A stretch of DNA of 64,000 nt from Escherichia coli (GCF_030013205.1 NZ_CP122648.1), one strand, 5' to 3'; positions 25,979 to 35,451 are shown, counted from the first letter of the stretch. Program-made: numbers and translations. Notes: generated by a model from the sequence alone, not told the origin.

Positions 25979-26144
25979 TGTGTAATCCTCACCATAAAGT
26001 TGAATAATATAATTTTTTTAAATATATTATTGTTGCGATATTGTACTGATGTATTTATTAAGGTTTAGTTATCTCCTTTACCATTAAGGCACTCCCCGAT
26101 ATTAATCGGGAAGTACATTGGGATAAATCATAAAAAACTAATGA

Positions 26145-27017
<873 letters not shown>

Positions 27018-28172
27018 TTATGCCTGCCACGGATGAATGATTACGCCTTGCACCACGCGGTTAACGGTGCCGCTGGCTGATGGGGTATCCGGCGTATTGC
27101 CCATGTGCAGCGACTGCATAAGTGCAAACGTCTGGGCGTACATCAGGAAGCAAAATGCCTGCTCAACGTCGATAAAGTGACGGGACGGCGGCAGGATAAT
27201 ATGTGGACCGGCAGCAACGATGTCTGTGCTTTCCGCGGCGATGGCGATTACGCGCATTGCCTGGTTATCGCGGCGAAGTTCAGCCAGTAGATCAAGATCA
27301 TACTGACGGGTGTAAGGGTGGCTGGAGACAAATACCACCACCAGCGTTTCGTTATCGACCAGCGATTTCGGGCCATGACGGAATCCGGTCGGGGAATCAT
27401 AAAAGGCCGCCAGTTTACCCGCCGTCAGTTCCAGTACTTTCAGCGCCGACTCGCGTGCTGCGCCCTGTAAGCCACCGCTGCCGAGATAAACGATCCGTTT
27501 CCACGGTGCGTAACCAAACACACCTTCGCTGAAATCGCCCAGTGAGGTCAGGATCGCCTGGCAACGATCCGCCACGTCGCGGAAGCTCTGGCTGTTGATC
27601 GTCTCAGGTGCGAAAACCGCGAGGCAGCTGGCCATCATGGTGGTAATGCTGCTGGTCATCGCAAAGCCGCGATCGTGCGTTTCTGCGGGCATCAGTAGGG
27701 CAAACGCGTTGTCGCTGTTGATCGCGTTTTGGTAAAGAGCGCCCGCTTCGTTGCAGGTGATCGGCAGGTGATAGCACTCGGGTACAAATTGATTTGCCAG
27801 TTCCACGGCGGCGACGCTTTCCGGGCTGTTGCCGGATCGACCGAAGGAGATCAACAGCAGTGGATGAGTTGGATTCAGGTAGTCCATCGGATTGGTGACC
27901 AGATCGGTGGTCGGTACGGCGCTGAAGTTTTTACCGGTATGGCTGGCGAGCCACGGCGCGATAATGTCACCGATAAATGCCGAGGTTCCGGCTCCGGTCA
28001 GGATTACCCGCAGATTCTCTTTGCGCAGTAACGGTTCAAGGAAGTTATTGAGCGCGGAACGTAGTGCGTCGATGTTGGTGAGTGAACGGATCCATGCGCG
28101 AGGCTGATGGCGGATCTCTTCTTCAGTCCATGTACCGGTTGCGGCAGCAGCAGGGGGGTAATTTTCTGGCAT
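27018..28172 (-). CDS. agaS: SIS-domain putative galactosamine-6-phosphate deaminase/isomerase (384 aa)
   Basis: ORF track. Confidence 0.9.
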   Translation of the reverse strand: MPENYPPAAAATGTWTEEEIRHQPRAWIRSLTNIDALRSALNNFLEPLLRKENLRVILTGAGTSAFIGDIIAPWLASHTGKNFSAVPTTDLVTNPMDYLNPTHPLLLISFGRSGNSPESVAAVELANQFVPECYHLPITCNEAGALYQNAINSDNAFALLMPAETHDRGFAMTSSITTMMASCLAVFAPETINSQSFRDVADRCQAILTSLGDFSEGVFGYAPWKRIVYLGSGGLQGAARESALKVLELTAGKLAAFYDSPTGFRHGPKSLVDNETLVVVFVSSHPYTRQYDLDLLAELRRDNQAMRVIAIAAESTDIVAAGPHIILPPSRHFIDVEQAFCFLMYAQTFALMQSLHMGNTPDTPSASGTVNRVVQGVIIHPWQA

Positions 28173-28189
28173 AACTCAATCCTTAGTCT

Positions 28190-28360
28190 GATGAACTTGA
28201 CGTCGGGCGTTGTCGCTTTCGCTTACCTTTCGTTTCATTTCACTTGGTGATGTCTTTCGTTGATTAAAATCTATAGAAAAGAAACTGAAAGTTCAATGGA
28301 GAAAAAAGAAATAAAACGAAATTTGTGATCGTTGAAAGAAAAGACAAGGGAAGATTAAAG
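28190..28360. promoter_or_regulatory. agaS promoter region with repeated tttcgttt/aaacgaaa-type motifs (AgaR operator-like)
   Basis: Repeated motif seen in sequence; AgaR assignment is established knowledge/inference. Confidence 0.5.
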
Positions 28361-28522
28361 GATTGCGTGATAACGTCGCTATGTTCACCGATTGCCGGAT
28401 GCGGCGTACCGTAGGTCGGATCAGACGCGTTAGCGTCGCATCCGACACCGCTGCACAGATCAAAAAGAAAGAAAAAGAAAGGCCTTACGGGGGAAGTGAA
28501 GGCCCAATAATGGAGCAAACCA

Positions 28523-29656
28523 TCAAAACGAAGCTAATTGACCCTGAATCCAGATTTGTTGCACATGTAGCCCGCTATCCAGCGCAACGACGCTGGCGCG
28601 TTTGCCCGGTTTAAGCGATCCCAGAACACCATCAACACCCAGCATTCGCGCCGGATGCAGCGACGCCATATGGATGGCTTCCGCAGGCGTTACGCCCGTT
28701 AACTCGACCATGTTGCGCACTGCTGCATCGACAGATAGCGTACTGCCCGCCAGCCCACCGGACGCGGTACGGACAACGCCACCGTGCATCTGCACTTCTT
28801 CGCCACATAACGTATAGCGACCATCCGGCATCCCAGCTGCCTGCATCGCGTCGGTGATCAGTACGATTCTCTCTTTCGCACAGCAACAACACAGCGACAT
28901 CGCCGCCGGATGCACATGATGACCATCGGCTATCAGTTCCAGCCAGGCGCGCTTGTCCGTTAATCCCGCGCCAACCATTCCCGGTTCGCGGTGATGTAAA
29001 CCTGTCATCCCGTTATAGCAATGCACCAGGCCGTCGGCACCAGCATCAAATGCGGCGCGGGTTTGTTGCCAGGTCGCCGCGCTATGCCCCAGCATCACCC
29101 TTACGTTTTGCTGTTTAAGATGGCGGATGGCCTGCAATGCCCCTTCTTTTTCCGGTGCCAGCGCTACCACGCGTAAGGTGTGCTGAGAAACGGCAATCAA
29201 TTGATCCAGCTCGGCAATTTCCAGCTCGCGAAACAGCTCCGGTGGATGCGCGCCTTTATTCTGCGGCGTGAAGTACGGTCCTTCGAGATAACTCCCCAGC
29301 ACTTGCGCACCAGGTCCGCCGCGTTGGCAACGTTGAGCAATACGTTTCAGCGCCGCATGAATGGTATTAAGCGGCGCGGTTACGGTGGTCGGTAACCAAC
29401 TGCCGACACCTTCGCATGCCTTGTGCATTGCCAGCTTGTCGAGTACATCCGGCGCGTCATCCATTACATCAACGCCCGCACCACCGTGTACATGGGTGTC
29501 GATGTAAGCGGGGCAGAGCAGTTCCGCATCGCGTTCAGTCACGCCCACTGGAATCGGTTCGATTGCTGCGATGACACCGTCAGCAATACGCAACTGATGG
29601 TCATCGAGCCATCCCTCTTCAGTTAGCAGCCTTCTGGCGCGCAGAACGGGTGTCAT
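28523..29656 (-). CDS. agaA: N-acetylgalactosamine-6-phosphate deacetylase, full length (about 377 aa)
   Basis: ORF track 28523..29677; NagA-like. Confidence 0.88.
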   Translation of the reverse strand: MTPVLRARRLLTEEGWLDDHQLRIADGVIAAIEPIPVGVTERDAELLCPAYIDTHVHGGAGVDVMDDAPDVLDKLAMHKACEGVGSWLPTTVTAPLNTIHAALKRIAQRCQRGGPGAQVLGSYLEGPYFTPQNKGAHPPELFRELEIAELDQLIAVSQHTLRVVALAPEKEGALQAIRHLKQQNVRVMLGHSAATWQQTRAAFDAGADGLVHCYNGMTGLHHREPGMVGAGLTDKRAWLELIADGHHVHPAAMSLCCCCAKERIVLITDAMQAAGMPDGRYTLCGEEVQMHGGVVRTASGGLAGSTLSVDAAVRNMVELTGVTPAEAIHMASLHPARMLGVDGVLGSLKPGKRASVVALDSGLHVQQIWIQGQLASF

Positions 29657-30087
29657 ATTCCTTCCTCGACCGGACATTCTTCATGGCAGCGGCCTAACTC
29701 GTCCACCAGACTGGTCAGCCCACGGTGTCCACACTCCAGCGCCTGCACACGGAATTCTTCACCGATTAACCCTTCGCGCTCCAGCACCATCTCCAGTAGC
29801 AGTTGTAAATTGGTGCCTGTAATCACTTCACAGCCCGGTTTTTGCATCGCCAGCGTTGAAGCTACGCGAAACGGCGTGCCGCCCAGCAAATCCGTCAGAA
29901 AAACAATGCCGTCTTCACAATCCAGTTGGGCGATGGCCTCTTCAAGCTGCGATGTAAGCAGCGCGGTGCTTGAGGTTTCCGGAAAATCGATGGCGATAAA
30001 CTGCGATTGCTCGCCGAGGATTTGCTTCATTGCTTTTTCCATGCCACTGGCAAACCCGCCATGCCCTGTCAAAATAATACTTAACAT
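29653..30087 (-). CDS. agaF: PTS N-acetylgalactosamine-specific EIIA component (144 aa)
   Basis: ORF track. Confidence 0.88.
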   Translation of the reverse strand: MLSIILTGHGGFASGMEKAMKQILGEQSQFIAIDFPETSSTALLTSQLEEAIAQLDCEDGIVFLTDLLGGTPFRVASTLAMQKPGCEVITGTNLQLLLEMVLEREGLIGEEFRVQALECGHRGLTSLVDELGRCHEECPVEEGI

Positions 30088-30104
30088 CTAATACCTCATT
30101 GTAT

Positions 30105-30983
30105 TTAAAGGAAATGGCAGAATTTACCGACGATGCCGAGAACCACGGTCACTGCAATCAGGCGCAGCGGACTCCAGCCGCGGCGTACCAGCCAGAACAT
30201 GGTCAGGGTGTAGACCAGCGGTAAGAAGGCAGGCATCAGTTTGTCGATAACATCAGCCTGTAACTTAACCACTGCGTCGCCCGCTGTGATTTCCAGCGTG
30301 GTGCTTAAACGAACATAGGTTGCCACCAGCGCGCCGATTACCGTCATCCCAACGATAGACGCAGCATGGCCGACTTTTTTGGTATTCGCTTTAATGAGTG
30401 GAATCGCCGCCACGCCCATGCGGTAAGCATAATGCGCCAGACCAAAACGCAGCCCCAGGTGTACCACGTTGAACAGCACAATAAAGACGACTGCGCCAAG
30501 AATAGAGCCTTGTAGCGCGAGGCTTGCGCCTATCCCACCACAAATCGGCAGTAGCGTCAGCCAGAACATTGCATCGCCAATCCCGCCAAGTGGCGCACCG
30601 ACGGCAATTTTGGTGCTCTGAATACTGTTAACGTCCTGCTTAGAACGCTCCATCGCAAGGATAATGCCGATAACAAACGTCACCAGAAACGGATGGGTAT
30701 TGAAGAAACCCATATGCCCCTTCATGGCGCGCGCCAGGTCGCGTTTATTAGTGTGGATCTTTTTCAGAGCAGGCAGCAGACCGTACAACCAGCTAGAAGC
30801 CTGCATACGTTCGTAGTTAAAAGACGCTTGTAACAGCATGGAACGCCAGGCGACGCGGTTGATATCTTTTTTCGTCAGCTCTGCGCCAATGCTCTGATCT
30901 TCATACACGTTTTCATTGACGCCTGTCAGCAGTGTTTCTTCGTTTTCACTGACGTTCGGCAGGGTGGTTTGATTAGATGCCAT
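30105..30983 (-). CDS. agaE: PTS N-acetylgalactosamine-specific EIID component (about 292 aa)
   Basis: ORF track 30105..30989; paralog of agaD. Confidence 0.88.
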   Translation of the reverse strand: MASNQTTLPNVSENEETLLTGVNENVYEDQSIGAELTKKDINRVAWRSMLLQASFNYERMQASSWLYGLLPALKKIHTNKRDLARAMKGHMGFFNTHPFLVTFVIGIILAMERSKQDVNSIQSTKIAVGAPLGGIGDAMFWLTLLPICGGIGASLALQGSILGAVVFIVLFNVVHLGLRFGLAHYAYRMGVAAIPLIKANTKKVGHAASIVGMTVIGALVATYVRLSTTLEITAGDAVVKLQADVIDKLMPAFLPLVYTLTMFWLVRRGWSPLRLIAVTVVLGIVGKFCHFL

Positions 30984-31752
30984 CTTCAAATTCCTCTTTC
31001 TGTGCCGCAGGTTGAGTCGGTTCAGGAGATTTACGCAGCAGGTCGATCAGCGCCATCGCCAGCGCGGCGGCAGCAATAGCCAGCACCGGTAACTTGAGCC
31101 AGGCTGCGGCAACAAAGCCCAGGATGAAGTAGGGGATGTAGACGTTTTTCATCATGATTTTCAGCAGCACGGCAAAACCGATTGCTGGCATGATGCCGCC
31201 CGCGACGCCGAGGCCGTCGATTAATCGTTGCGGCAGGACATCAATGATGGTTTTGGCATGTTCTGCGCCGAAGTAGATAGGCAGGAAAGCGCAGAGAAAA
31301 TAGAAAGTGCCGAGTGCCAGCAGTGCCAGATAGTTCACGCGTTCAATGCCGCGTGTATCGGCGTTCTCCGCCATCCGGTCGCAGCGAGACATCACGCCAG
31401 ACATCACCGAGAACAGGAAGGTAATCCCCATCTGTACTGCGACAGCGAAAGGTACGGCGACACCGACCGCGACATCGGGTTTCACGCCAGTAGTAATGGC
31501 AAACGCCGTGCCGACGATAGTACCGATAATCACGTTAGGCGGTTGTGCGCCTGCCAGCGGGGCCAGCCCCATCCACACCAGTTCCAGCGTACCGCCGGTT
31601 AAAATACCGGTATGCAGATCGCCAAGTACCAGTCCGACCAACGGGCCGAGGACCACCGGGCGGTGCATATGGGTTAGGCCGTTAAACATATCCAGGCCAG
31701 CGATAAAGGCGATAATGCCCAACGCGAATGCCTGCAACAGACTGATTTCCAT
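30973..31752 (-). CDS. agaW: PTS N-acetylgalactosamine-specific EIIC component, full length (259 aa)
   Basis: ORF track. Confidence 0.88.
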   Translation of the reverse strand: MEISLLQAFALGIIAFIAGLDMFNGLTHMHRPVVLGPLVGLVLGDLHTGILTGGTLELVWMGLAPLAGAQPPNVIIGTIVGTAFAITTGVKPDVAVGVAVPFAVAVQMGITFLFSVMSGVMSRCDRMAENADTRGIERVNYLALLALGTFYFLCAFLPIYFGAEHAKTIIDVLPQRLIDGLGVAGGIMPAIGFAVLLKIMMKNVYIPYFILGFVAAAWLKLPVLAIAAAALAMALIDLLRKSPEPTQPAAQKEEFEDGI

Positions 31753-31762
31753 GATGAATCCC

Positions 31763-32236
31763 TCAAAGTAATTTAAAGAGGTCCACTGCAGGCTCTGTCG
31801 GGACGCCCTGAACGAAGCATTCCACCCCAGCGGCTTTCAGGTCGTTAAATGCTGCAATATCGCCCGCATCTACAGAAACCGTTTTGGCGATTTGTTGCTT
31901 GCCATTGGCGTAGTGCATATTGCCAACGTTAATGCGATTCACCGGAACGCCACCTTTCACCAGCGTCAGGAAATCGGCAGGTGTTTTACAAACCAGCAGG
32001 ATTTTCTGTCGATCGGCGGCGCGATGAATGTTGTCGATGACTTTTTGCAGCGTCCAGAAACGTACGGCTATCCCTTCTGCCAGTACCATTTCCATCAGGT
32101 TTTGTTGTACCGGATCTTCGGCAACCTCATCGTTGGCTACCAGCACCAGATTTGCTCCCGCAAATCCGACCCACTGAACGCCGACCTGACCGTGAATCAA
32201 GCGTTCATCAATCCGGCTTAAAACAATATTTGGCAT
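31763..32236 (-). CDS. agaV: PTS N-acetylgalactosamine-specific EIIB component (157 aa)
   Basis: ORF track 31763..32272; likely start MPNIVLSRIDERL. Confidence 0.88.
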   Translation of the reverse strand: MPNIVLSRIDERLIHGQVGVQWVGFAGANLVLVANDEVAEDPVQQNLMEMVLAEGIAVRFWTLQKVIDNIHRAADRQKILLVCKTPADFLTLVKGGVPVNRINVGNMHYANGKQQIAKTVSVDAGDIAAFNDLKAAGVECFVQGVPTEPAVDLFKLL

Positions 32237-32258
32237 AGCGTGTTCCTCTTTGTTTTGC

Positions 32259-33539
32259 TTATTGGCCTTCACAGGCTGTGTGGTACTGCGCCAGGATGTC
32301 CTGAATATGGTTGATAATGAGTTCCCGTGGCGTCGGTTGCAGCTCGCCGGAGCGAACTTTCACGTATTGCAGCGGCAGATACTGGCTGATGAGCGGCAGC
32401 GGAATCGGTGAATCCGCCAGATTACGAACCAGATGGGCGAAAGCGTCATCAATCTGGCTGTCCGGCCAGTAATAGCGCACGCGATCCGAGTAGCTATAAC
32501 CACGCGCCATACGACGCGCGTTGCCGTCACCGTGGTAGTGGCTTTGCCAGTATTCCGGGCGGTCGAGCATCACGTTTTCCAGCACCTGACGCAGACCGGA
32601 ACAGGCTTTCGCTGGTACCAGTTCTTCTTCAATCGCCGCCAGAGAAAAAAGGGCTTCACGCAGGGCGAAGGTCAGCGCCGGGCCAACTTTCAGAATGGCA
32701 AAGTGGTCAATCACTAGCTGGCGCAACGATTGCGGCGTTTGGTAATCGGTAGAGTGCGCTTCGAAAATCAGCGTTTCGTAGTTTTCGACCATCTGGCTTA
32801 AGGCGGTCGCTTTAGCTGGCTGATAATCAATAACGTTGGTGTGATCGAATTCGACGCCGGGTTGTACCACCAGAGCAATGATGCGTGGCCAGATGGCACT
32901 CAGACCTTGCTTTTCAAAGGCGTGACGATGGGCTTCCAGCGTGGCGCGGGCGGCATCTGGCGTGGTGACCGCCAGCTCGCTTAAGGTTTCATGCGCGCCG
33001 CCAGGTACCGGTACTTCGGTACCAATGACATACACCAGATCGACTTCGCCAAAGTGTTCACGGCAGCTTTCTTCCGCCACTTTCGCCAGACGGGCGGCGC
33101 GTTCAGCCACGATGTCATCAGTTAAGGGAACCGGATCGTCCTGGCAGGACATGCTGCAATCAAGGTGGATTTTTTTGAATCCTGCCGCCACGTAGCTTTT
33201 AATCAAATCATCGGCATTGGCCATTGCCTGAGCGGCTGGCTGGTTTTGCCAGCGGTTTGGCCCCAGATGGTCACCACCCAGAATCAACGCATCCTGTGGG
33301 AAATTCAACGAGTCGGCGAGCTGACAAACAAAGCCGCGAAAATCGGCGGGCGTCATTCCGGTATAACCGCCGAACTGGTCTACCTGATTGGAGGTTGCTT
33401 CAATCAGTAACGACGTTTGGTTTGCACTGGCGTAGCGGATTGCAGCTTCCAGCACCAGCGGATGTGCGGAACAAACGGCATAAATTCCATTTGTTTTGCC
33501 CGCTTTGTGCTGTCTCACCATTTCTGTCAGATGTTTCAC
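32259..33539 (-). CDS. kbaZ: tagatose-bisphosphate aldolase non-catalytic subunit (426 aa)
   Basis: ORF track. Confidence 0.9.
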
Positions 33540-33559
33540 TTTCCTCTCCAGTTCAGATT

Positions 33560-33780
33560 ACTGCGATATTAATCTTTCGTTTTGTTTCAGTTGATACTGC
33601 GCCATGGTGAGATAAAAATAAAACGAAAGATAATGGTTTTCTGATCTGATTCACAAAAGAAACATAATGAAAGCCACTGAAACGAGAGTAGCTTGCGCCA
33701 ATGGGTAAGGTGGGCTTGCATTTGCTTAATAGAAAGGCGTTAATAGGCAAAACGAAATGAAACGAAAGTTTTACGAAAGG
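33560..33780. promoter_or_regulatory. divergent kbaZ/agaR promoter region with repeated aaacgaaa/tttcgttt motifs (AgaR operator-like)
   Basis: Motif repeats visible (e.g. aaacgaaatgaaacgaaag). Confidence 0.5.
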
Positions 33781-33787
33781 ACTTACT

Positions 33788-34597
33788 ATGAGTAATACCG
33801 ACGCTTCAGGTGAGAAGCGAATGACAGGCACCAGCGAGCGACGAGAACAGATCATTCAGCGTCTGCGACAGCAAGGGAGTGTGCAGGTTAACGATCTGTC
33901 GGCATTGTATGGCGTATCTACTGTGACGATCCGCAACGATCTGGCGTTTCTGGAAAAGCAGGGGATCGCTGTGCGTGCCTATGGCGGCGCGTTGATCTGC
34001 GATAGCACGACGCCGTCAGTCGAGCCATCAGTGGAAGATAAAAGCGCGCTGAACACCGCAATGAAACGCAGCGTTGCGAAAGCTGCCGTTGAGTTGATTC
34101 AGCCAGGTCATCGGGTGATTCTCGATTCCGGGACCACCACTTTTGAGATTGCTCGTCTGATGCGCAAGCACACTGACGTAATTGCGATGACCAACGGTAT
34201 GAACGTGGCTAATGCGTTGCTGGAAGCGGAAGGCGTTGAGCTGCTGATGACCGGCGGGCATTTGCGCCGTCAGTCGCAATCTTTTTACGGCGATCAGGCT
34301 GAGCAATCGCTGCAAAATTACCACTTCGATATGCTGTTTCTTGGTGTAGATGCGATCGATCTGGAGCGCGGCGTCAGCACGCATAATGAAGATGAAGCCC
34401 GTTTAAACCGCCGGATGTGCGAAGTTGCGGAACGGATCATCGTGGTCACCGATTCCAGTAAATTCAATCGTTCCAGTTTACATAAGATCATTGATACTCA
34501 ACGTATCGACATGATCATTGTTGATGAAGGCATTCCTGCGGATAGCCTGGAAGGGCTGCGAAAGGCTGGGGTTGAAGTGATTCTGGTCGGGGAGTGA
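33788..34597 (+). CDS. agaR: DeoR-family repressor of the aga operons (269 aa)
   Basis: ORF track; N-terminal HTH, DeoR C-terminal domain. Confidence 0.92.
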
Positions 34598-34651
34598 GAA
34601 AGGGGGCCCGCTGGTCAACACGAATGCGTTCGGCGGGCATTGTGAACACCA

Positions 34652-35116
34652 TCAATCGGTTTCTTCTGTCTCTCGGGTGAGGGTTTCCCAGTCGGCAGGA
34701 GGATGTCCTCTTTTTAACATTTTGCTGAATACGGTATAAGCATCTGTTTTTTTACCGTAGGTGCGCAGAGTGTTTTCATCGTTCATCCATCCCAGAATGA
34801 TGACTTTCTCTTTTTCACTATAACGAAAGAAGAGACGATAACGACCAGCACCAAATTTTACCCGTGACCAGTCTTTATTTTTCCCAGAGCCTAACGACTT
34901 GCCATGACGGAATGCCGGTGATGATGGATTGACCGTGATATGCTCCTCAATCACTTTATGGACTACCGCCAATAACTTTGTGGCGGCTTTTCTCTGATAA
35001 TTTTCAGGATCTTTTCCCTTTAATGTCTCGACTTCGGCAACTAAAGCGTCGTAGGTTTCCTGAAAACAGGGATGAGCATATAGCGCCCAACTATTAACCC
35101 TTTGTGGAAAATCCAT
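34652..35116 (-). CDS. yhaV: toxin YhaV, ribosome-dependent mRNA interferase (154 aa)
   Basis: ORF track; 4-nt overlap with upstream prlF. Confidence 0.9.
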   Translation of the reverse strand: MDFPQRVNSWALYAHPCFQETYDALVAEVETLKGKDPENYQRKAATKLLAVVHKVIEEHITVNPSSPAFRHGKSLGSGKNKDWSRVKFGAGRYRLFFRYSEKEKVIILGWMNDENTLRTYGKKTDAYTVFSKMLKRGHPPADWETLTRETEETD

Positions 35117-35451
35117 TATTCGTCGTCGCCAATCTCATCATCAATGTTGACGTCCATGCCAGCGACAAGTTTCTTTCCTTGTTGAATGTTGAATGGACGA
35201 GTTTTTTGCGGGTTGTTCTGGATATCTGCATCCAGAAAACGCAAAAATGCATTCATAGTATGATCCTCCTGTTCATCTCCCAGTCGGCACATAAATACTT
35301 GCCCACCAGGCAGAATTTCGTAATGAATGCTGTCCTGGCCTGGCTTCAGTTTTAAGGCCTCACGCACTGGCGCGGGGATAGTTGTTTGTCCGCGTATCGT
35401 GACCTTTGATTCAGTGGTCAGTACAGCGTGAGAGCGAGCATTAGCGGGCAT
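35116..35451 (-). CDS. prlF: antitoxin PrlF (SohA), AbrB-fold (111 aa)
   Basis: ORF track; acidic C-terminal tail; paired with yhaV. Confidence 0.9.
   Translation of the reverse strand: MPANARSHAVLTTESKVTIRGQTTIPAPVREALKLKPGQDSIHYEILPGGQVFMCRLGDEQEDHTMNAFLRFLDADIQNNPQKTRPFNIQQGKKLVAGMDVNIDDEIGDDE

Follow-up and report, generated by a model that had tools for sequence, protein, structure and literature searches.

The stretch of DNA analysed here (the window; 64,000 nucleotides of Escherichia coli) contains the aga/gam cluster in its full version, the K-12 deletion being absent. Over positions 26000-35000 it shows 100% identity to strain ETEC4079, and more than 5300 other complete E. coli genomes share 95-99% identity with it there. 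Gene calls follow the RefSeq annotation of an E. coli genome with 100% identity, and those for agaR, kbaZ and agaS in an earlier reading of the window, made from the DNA letters without database searches (the sequence-only reading), agree with it (Table 1). The agaW, agaE, agaF and agaA genes are intact (28523-32272), unlike in K-12 MG1655, where the known deletion (L083, 4202-5126) has reduced agaW and agaA to pseudogene fragments. Directly 3' of agaR lies a prlF-yhaV toxin-antitoxin pair (~34652-35451), and garL (~38896-39671) and yhaB (~43679-44217) are frameshifted pseudogenes in the annotation of the reference strain, to which the identity of the window covers 26000-35000.

AgaR is a DeoR-type regulator, as the sequence-only reading had stated. 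Its Pfam domains are an N-terminal HTH_DeoR (1.9e-21) and a C-terminal DeoRC sensor domain (3.3e-55), and it scores 465.9 bits against the NCBIfam AgaR equivalog, for which the cut-off is 260. In the PDB, AgaR has one solved relative only, the sensor domain of a deoxyribose operon repressor (7l6l, E = 1.7e-12).

Table 1. Genes, candidate operators and other features of the aga/gam locus, in window coordinates; promoter elements are predicted.
Feature	Sequence	Position	Strand	Remarks
agaI, agaD, agaC, agaB, then kbaY		kbaY 26145-27005	-	RefSeq annotation
agaS		27018-28172	-	RefSeq annotation
agaA-agaS spacer		28173-28522		350 bp; GC 0.43
Short copy	GCTTTCGCTT	28215-28224		
Operator Sc	TACCTTTCGTTTCATTTCACTTGG	28224-28247	+	0 consensus mismatches; matrix 30.1
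Short copy	TCTTTCGTTG	28253-28262		
Predicted agaS promoter	-35 TTGAAC, -10 TAGATT	28268-28296	-	-35 28296-28291; 17-bp spacer; -10 28273-28268
Operator Sb	GAACTTTCAGTTTCTTTTCTATAG	28271-28294	-	Matrix 10.5; weaker copy; conserved block
Operator Sa	CAAATTTCGTTTTATTTCTTTTTT	28302-28325	-	1 consensus mismatch; matrix 23.6; conserved
Conserved block with TCACA half-site	ACGATCACAAA	28324-28339	-	~70 bp upstream of predicted agaS start
REP-type palindromic element	arms TGCCGGATGCGGCG / CGTCGCATCCGACA	~28385-28455		Between agaA terminator and agaS promoter
Candidate distal operator Sd	GGCCTTTCTTTTTCTTTCTTTTTG	28461-28484	-	3 consensus mismatches; matrix 19.9
Terminator-like hairpin	GGGCCUUCACUUCCCCCGUAAGGCCU, then UUUCUUUUUCUUUCUUUUU	28480-28505	-	Directly 3' of agaA
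agaA (nagA in RefSeq record)		28523-29656	-	RefSeq annotation
agaF, agaE, agaW, agaV		Between agaA and kbaZ	-	RefSeq annotation
kbaZ		32259-33539	-	RefSeq annotation
kbaZ-agaR spacer		33540-33787		248 bp; GC 0.37
Operator Z1	AATCTTTCGTTTTGTTTCAGTTGA	33571-33594	+	3 consensus mismatches; matrix 30.6
Predicted kbaZ -10	CAGTAT	33594-33599	-	Conserved ATACTG block
Operator Z2	TATCTTTCGTTTTATTTTTATCTC	33609-33632	-	Matrix 29.9; conserved; over predicted kbaZ -35 region
CRP-type site	TCTGATCTGATTCACA	33640-33655		Between Z2 and Z3
Operator Z3	TGGCTTTCATTATGTTTCTTTTGT	33653-33676	-	2 consensus mismatches; matrix 25.4; conserved
Predicted agaR promoter	-35 TTGCAT, -10 GTTAAT	33716-33744	+	-35 33716-33721; 17-bp spacer; -10 33739-33744
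Operator R	AAACTTTCGTTTCATTTCGTTTTG	33748-33771	-	0 consensus mismatches; matrix 31.9, best in window; conserved
Short copy	ACGAAAGGA	33773-33781		
agaR		33788-34597	+	Divergent from kbaZ; RefSeq annotation
TTTCGTTT upstream of agaS		28228 (+), 28314 (-)		Exact match
TTTCGTTT in kbaZ-agaR region		33575 (+), 33621 (-), 33750 (-), 33760 (-)		Exact match
TTTCGTTT elsewhere		49727 in tdcE, 60511 in yqjG		Single copies within coding sequence

A short motif is concentrated in the two aga spacers

The sequence-only reading had described arrays of a tttcgttt/aaacgaaa motif, in direct and inverted orientation, upstream of agaS and in the divergent kbaZ-agaR region. Both regions do contain the motif, each in both orientations: exact TTTCGTTT occurs eight times in the window on either strand, and six of these eight copies lie in the agaA-agaS (two) and kbaZ-agaR (four) spacers. 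The copies in tdcE and yqjG are isolated, intragenic and below 10 bits with the matrix described below, and were treated as chance occurrences. The example quoted for the arrays, aaacgaaatgaaacgaaag, is located at 33750-33768.

Enrichment was assessed with 5000 dinucleotide shuffles of each intergenic region, and the observed counts were almost never reached by shuffled sequence of the same composition. Upstream of agaS, two copies of TTTCGTTT compare with a shuffle mean of 0.13 (reached in 32 of 5000 shuffles), three of TTTCRTTT with 0.23 (5 of 5000) and seven of CTTTC with 1.68 (4 of 5000). The corresponding counts in the kbaZ-agaR spacer, four, five and six (shuffle means 0.05, 0.13 and 1.03), were each reached in 0 of 5000 shuffles, and CGAAAG showed the same enrichment behaviour. 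In an unbiased comparison of 6-, 7- and 8-mer counts between the two spacers and the remaining window, ACGAAA, ACGAAAG and AAACGAAA came out on top; AAACGAAA/TTTCGTTT is found six times in 584 spacer positions and twice in 63381 others (p = 2e-13, Bonferroni 1e-10). The two 250-bp segments richest in TTTCRTT within the 64 kb are exactly these two spacers, and a repeat finder independently recovered the main copies as inverted repeats (28228-28241/28308-28321 and 33572-33587/33616-33631).

The repeated unit is an asymmetric triple pentamer

The octamer had been picked out correctly, but the true unit is longer: the operator is asymmetric and spans ~24 bp with a 15-bp core. The core, CTTTCGTTTYRTTTC, consists of three tandem NTTTC pentamers, as the peaks of the information profile across 73 species, at CTTTC, TTT and TTTC, follow one another at 5-bp intervals. 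Pentamers 1 and 3 sit 10 bp apart and therefore on the same helix face, and the pentamers would be the elements read by the AgaR HTH. A search for internal dyad symmetry within single sites gave none, the core being a direct triple repeat; dyad symmetry was found only between separate sites, namely Z1/Z2 (16 nt, 94% complementary) and Sc/Sa (14 nt, 93% complementary). AgaR sites have been termed 'palindromes' (PMC4694137), a term that does not describe the single AgaR unit.

A position matrix was trained on the four kbaZ-agaR sites only, with the agaS sites serving as cross-validation. It gives seven matches of at least 15 bits in the window, all within the two spacers: the four training sites plus three upstream of agaS (30.1, 23.6 and 19.9 bits); outside the two spacers the 64-kb window holds no match of 10 bits or more. 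The abstract of the 2004 study of Ray and Larson is said to give the AgaR consensus as WRMMTTTCRTTTYRTTTYNYTTKK, a string for which a full-text literature search returned nothing relevant. This consensus has six matches with up to three mismatches in the 64-kb window, where 0.18 are expected; all six are inside the two spacers and two are perfect. The 15-nt core of Sc is identical to the core of site R.

Three further short copies, GCTTTCGCTT, TCTTTCGTTG and ACGAAAGGA, show no conservation beyond Escherichia, and ACGAAAGGA is mostly the agaR ribosome-binding site (Shine-Dalgarno). The sequence-only reading probably counted all three.

Sites and spacing are conserved across Enterobacterales

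A scan with the AgaR protein yielded 80 loci, from Escherichia, Citrobacter, Klebsiella, Enterobacter, Salmonella arizonae/diarizonae, Kluyvera, Raoultella, Buttiauxella, Yersinia, Serratia and others. From Escherichia to Yersinia and Serratia, ~80 loci keep the same sites in the same orientation and with the same spacing, and in alignments of 73 distinct sequences the site cores are at least 95% conserved and the DNA between them varies freely. Applied to 1.51 Mb from the 80 other loci, the matrix places 330 matches between kbaZ and agaR and 194 upstream of agaS, with nine elsewhere.

The arrangement in the kbaZ-agaR spacer, Z1(+), Z2(-), Z3(-), R(-), is the same in every locus, and the distances between core centres (41 bp from Z1 to Z2, 44 bp from Z2 to Z3 and ~95 bp on to R) are essentially invariant. 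The spacer itself measures 245-251 bp in 72 of 74 sequences from many genera. It keeps this length although a central stretch of ~40 bp (33674-33712) shows hardly any sequence conservation, and a constraint on spacer length is thereby suggested.

Of the nine stray matrix matches, seven precede a second AgaR-like gene. In Citrobacter portucalensis (L031, 10880-11900) a second TTTCGTTT/CGAAAG array is located ~260 bp 3' of agaR, and the same was seen in L009, L017, L027, L029, L036 and L061. This array precedes a DeoR-type gene; its product shares 43% identity with AgaR of E. coli and scores above the cut-off of the NCBIfam AgaR equivalog. The neighbours of the Citrobacter paralog, on the opposite strand, encode a ROK-family sugar kinase, an oxidoreductase and an ABC-transporter ATPase, and the whole resembles a second, non-PTS locus for amino sugars, controlled by an AgaR-like repressor with the same type of motif.

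The sites overlap or bracket three predicted promoters

Promoter hexamers and start sites for kbaZ, agaS and agaR were predicted from phylogenetic conservation. The sequence-only reading spoke of both aga promoters, but the conserved blocks mark three, those of kbaZ, agaR and agaS.

Upstream of agaS, the predicted -35 and -10 hexamers are both conserved in the 73 sequences. A simple sigma-70 scan of this region returned no promoter under a 9-of-12 rule because these hexamers match the consensus at 8 of 12 positions. Sa is positioned just 5' of the predicted -35 (~143-146 bp from the agaS ATG in most loci) and Sb fills the predicted promoter spacer, while Sc, inverted relative to both, would lie 3' of the start at ~+18 to +35; Sc is at least 95% conserved in the 73 sequences, and nearly every locus has it ~62-66 bp from the ATG. 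Sb carries an extra base between pentamers in E. coli; elsewhere it scores 12-23 bits in most genera and keeps a constant ~112-116 bp from the ATG. The left half of the ACGATCACAAA block matches a CRP half-site at two of five positions, and the block is possibly a weak CRP site. An AgaR-type site is absent within 500 bp upstream of agaS in Citrobacter sp. NCU1 (L016) and Serratia rubidaea (L074). In the former, agaS begins 58 bp past agaA, a gap that suggests loss of the internal agaS promoter and fusion of the two operons in some lineages.

In the kbaZ-agaR region, Z1 covers the predicted kbaZ start region and its core is invariant in the 73 sequences. Z3 abuts the CRP-type site on its upstream side relative to kbaZ. 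That site, TCTGATCTGATTCACA, departs from TGTGA-N6-TCACA at one position, is one of four such matches in the window, is at least 95% conserved in most columns and is centred ~61.5 bp upstream of the predicted kbaZ start. By its match, its conservation and a distance from the predicted start that would allow activation, it qualifies as a putative CRP site, and its distance from the kbaZ -10 would fit a class I arrangement. The kbaZ promoter is reported to depend on cAMP-CRP, and the position of TCTGATCTGATTCACA fits this.

At agaR, site R, which includes the quoted example aaacgaaatgaaacgaaag, would occupy the predicted start and the bases just 3' of it (~+1 to +20), and its distance to the agaR ATG is ~28 bp in every locus. 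The spacer of the predicted agaR promoter contains a conserved single pentamer, AGAAAGG (33731-33737). Two weak plus-strand sigma-70 candidates from a simple scan of the kbaZ-agaR region did not coincide with the conserved blocks and were rejected. At all three promoters the sense strand of the start-proximal operator is its A-rich strand. At kbaZ and agaS the start-proximal operator faces oppositely oriented upstream operators, and the core promoter would thus be bracketed.

A distal copy coincides with the agaA terminator

The sequence-only reading placed the agaS array at 28190-28360; the main copies do fall inside this interval, but the candidate copy Sd lies outside it. Sd coincides with the T-tract of what looks like a typical intrinsic terminator of the kbaZ-agaA operon, directly after agaA. 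A simple terminator scan missed its hairpin; the folded 76-nt stretch gives -15.5 kcal/mol. Approximately 25 other loci from many genera have the same hairpin followed by CTTTCTTTTCCTTTCG at ~246-248 bp from the agaS ATG. In E. coli Sd is ~300 bp from the ATG, with the REP-type element between it and the promoter, and genera outside Escherichia are without this element; the ~57 bp of extra distance to the distal copy in E. coli thus reflect insertion of the REP element. Measured between Sd and the agaS operators, the distance is 160 bp in E. coli and ~100 bp in other genera. The distal half of the REP element differs from that of K-12 MG1655. No Rfam family was found over the two control regions; the search turned up just two weak matches, both to the REP-derived naRNA4 family, below threshold and located on the REP element.

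The T-tract of Sd has a C every five bases that is conserved across genera. T-tracts generally do not score with the matrix, as its nine matches outside the two promoter regions in 1.5 Mb attest. Because of this rarity and the conserved C residues, Sd may be a genuine distal operator, though it may also be only a terminator tail, or both at once, and its score may stem from the T-tract. The 3' arm of the hairpin together with CTTTCTTTTYCTTTC suggests, without certainty, that Sd is orthologous to the ~247-bp copy of other genera; the automatic spacer alignment paired the E. coli Sd with a different upstream copy in Citrobacter. If AgaR does bind Sd, the end of the first operon would be linked to the promoter of the second, either through a loop to the agaS operators or because read-through is blocked or modulated. 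We know of no description of an AgaR site that links the agaA terminator to the agaS promoter.

Agreement with K-12 and weighing of alternative explanations

Relative to K-12 MG1655, the kbaZ-agaR spacer differs by four substitutions in 248 bp, none of which falls in the 15-nt site cores, and the gene-proximal 190 bp upstream of agaS differ at two positions, outside the conserved sites. The K-12 counterparts of the two regions have the coordinates 3278666-3278913 (kbaZ-agaR) and 3281626-3281975 (upstream of agaS). The AgaR operators of the aga/gam regulon are already known, having been published in 2004. As cited in PMC3668189 and PMC4694137, AgaR binds and represses the K-12 aga promoters (Ray & Larson 2004), and PMC3668189 credits AgaR with binding at the same three promoters, kbaZ, agaS and agaR. 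Deletion of agaR in E. coli C raises agaA ~50-fold and agaS ~175-fold, and both become constitutive (PMC3668189, Table 2). Likewise, expression of the Aga PTS is raised in agaR loss-of-function mutants (PMC9628945), and evolved strains that have lost AgaR control use GalNAc, glucose and D-tagatose differently (PMC9628945, PMC10101011).

Functionless copies could in principle arise by chance in AT-rich, purine/pyrimidine-skewed intergenic DNA. Both regions are AT-rich (GC 0.43 and 0.37), the motif can be mimicked by T-rich stretches like the terminator tail at 28461-28484, and the three short copies are not conserved. However, dinucleotide shuffles almost never reach the observed counts, the top k-mer has p = 2e-13, the sites are conserved islands in the 73-sequence alignments and, of 533 matrix matches in 1.5 Mb, just 9 lie anywhere other than in the two promoter regions. 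The shuffles, the k-mer test, the alignments and the specificity of the matrix rule out this origin, the probability of which we put at practically nil. The same holds for the idea that the spacers resemble each other through duplication of one promoter region rather than through selection for shared sites. An exact 15-nt match (28227-28241 and 33754-33768) speaks for a duplication, but the likeness between the spacers is confined to scattered units of at most 19 nt in differing order and orientation, with flanks that lack similarity; the spacers are therefore not duplicates, and duplication is ruled out.

The purine-rich copies Sc, R and Z1 might instead act in RNA, as translation or stability elements of 5' leaders: from the predicted promoters they would be transcribed into the agaS, agaR and kbaZ leaders, and the mRNA always carries the A-rich strand. 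This is very improbable, given that Z2, Z3, Sa and Sb are equally conserved, lie upstream of the starts in the opposite orientation and are covered together with all other copies by a reading at the DNA level, and that the leaders have no Rfam match and no obvious structure. Slightly less remote, though still improbable, is that the operators are genuine but have another protein as their main reader, such as a paralogous DeoR-type repressor or a nucleoid protein. The 43%-identical Citrobacter paralog has the same type of motif upstream, so the motif is common to a wider subfamily and cross-talk is conceivable. Against another reader stand the published binding of AgaR to exactly these promoters and the full derepression caused by agaR deletion alone (PMC3668189), the co-occurrence of the motif with agaR in 80 of 80 loci, and the placement of the strongest site on the promoter of agaR itself, as autoregulation predicts.

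We conclude that the motif arrays are very probably AgaR operators controlling kbaZ-agaVWEFA, agaS-kbaY-agaBCDI and agaR. The consensus, the matrix, the conservation and the near identity to K-12 all bear out the proposal that AgaR acts at several operators, and textbook AgaR repression is the best explanation because the control regions barely differ in sequence from their counterparts in K-12 MG1655, the strain background of the published work.

A model for repression by AgaR

In a mechanism consistent with this arrangement, oligomeric AgaR without inducer would occupy several operators per promoter and exclude RNA polymerase. At kbaZ and agaS an operator over or just 3' of the start would point towards one to three opposed upstream operators, which would cover the -35 region, the spacer and the upstream activator region; at kbaZ, AgaR would sandwich the CRP site and block CRP-dependent activation. 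At agaR a single strong operator over the start region would provide autoregulation. Binding of a GalNAc- or GalN-derived sugar phosphate to the C-terminal DeoRC domain would then release the repressor; the physiological inducer of AgaR is reported to be unknown (PMC4694137).

Cooperative binding, which the sequence-only reading had proposed, or looping by AgaR is plausible from the layout of the sites. The title of the 2004 paper of Ray and Larson reportedly implies dominant-negative AgaR variants, and cooperativity is favoured by this, by the multiplicity of the sites and by spacing that is invariant across genera. A stronger version, in which AgaR control depends on a nucleoprotein complex of fixed geometry and not on independent operators, is suggested by the invariant orientation and spacing in the kbaZ-agaR region and by the conserved copy embedded in the terminator, but we consider it unlikely.

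AgaR repression through sites of this type is also recorded in regulatory databases. The description of the unit as a triple pentamer, the invariance of the architecture, the terminator-embedded copy and the motif at the second Citrobacter gene possibly go beyond the accessible literature. The operator array could be recognised from raw sequence and gives a clean site model across Enterobacterales, and the aga regulon has practical relevance through sugar use in evolved strains.

Comparison with known systems

The closest counterpart is the set of K-12 AgaR operators (Ray & Larson 2004, Mol Microbiol 51:813), which involves the same genes, three promoters and regulator family. Nothing essential differs between the two; the present locus has an intact agaW-agaE-agaF-agaA segment and another distal REP half.

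The 24-bp consensus reported for the K-12 operators is matched here as well. The GlpR system likewise has several tandem or dispersed operators per promoter, read by an oligomeric DeoR-type repressor that responds to a sugar phosphate, and its operators, like the AgaR sites, overlap the core promoter and CRP sites; the GlpR operators, however, are 20-bp units with an internal dyad, whereas the AgaR unit is a direct triple pentamer with none. E. coli DeoR belongs to the same family and has multiple separated operators, several of which one oligomer is thought to contact, but its sites are 16-bp palindromes hundreds of bp apart that are joined by looping, in contrast to the asymmetric AgaR sites 31-95 bp apart. 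The Citrobacter AgaR-like locus shares with the aga/gam cluster the TTTCGTTT/CGAAAG arrays in front of a DeoR-type gene that passes the AgaR equivalog, and differs from it in a protein 43% identical to AgaR and in kinase, oxidoreductase and ABC-transporter neighbours in place of PTS genes.
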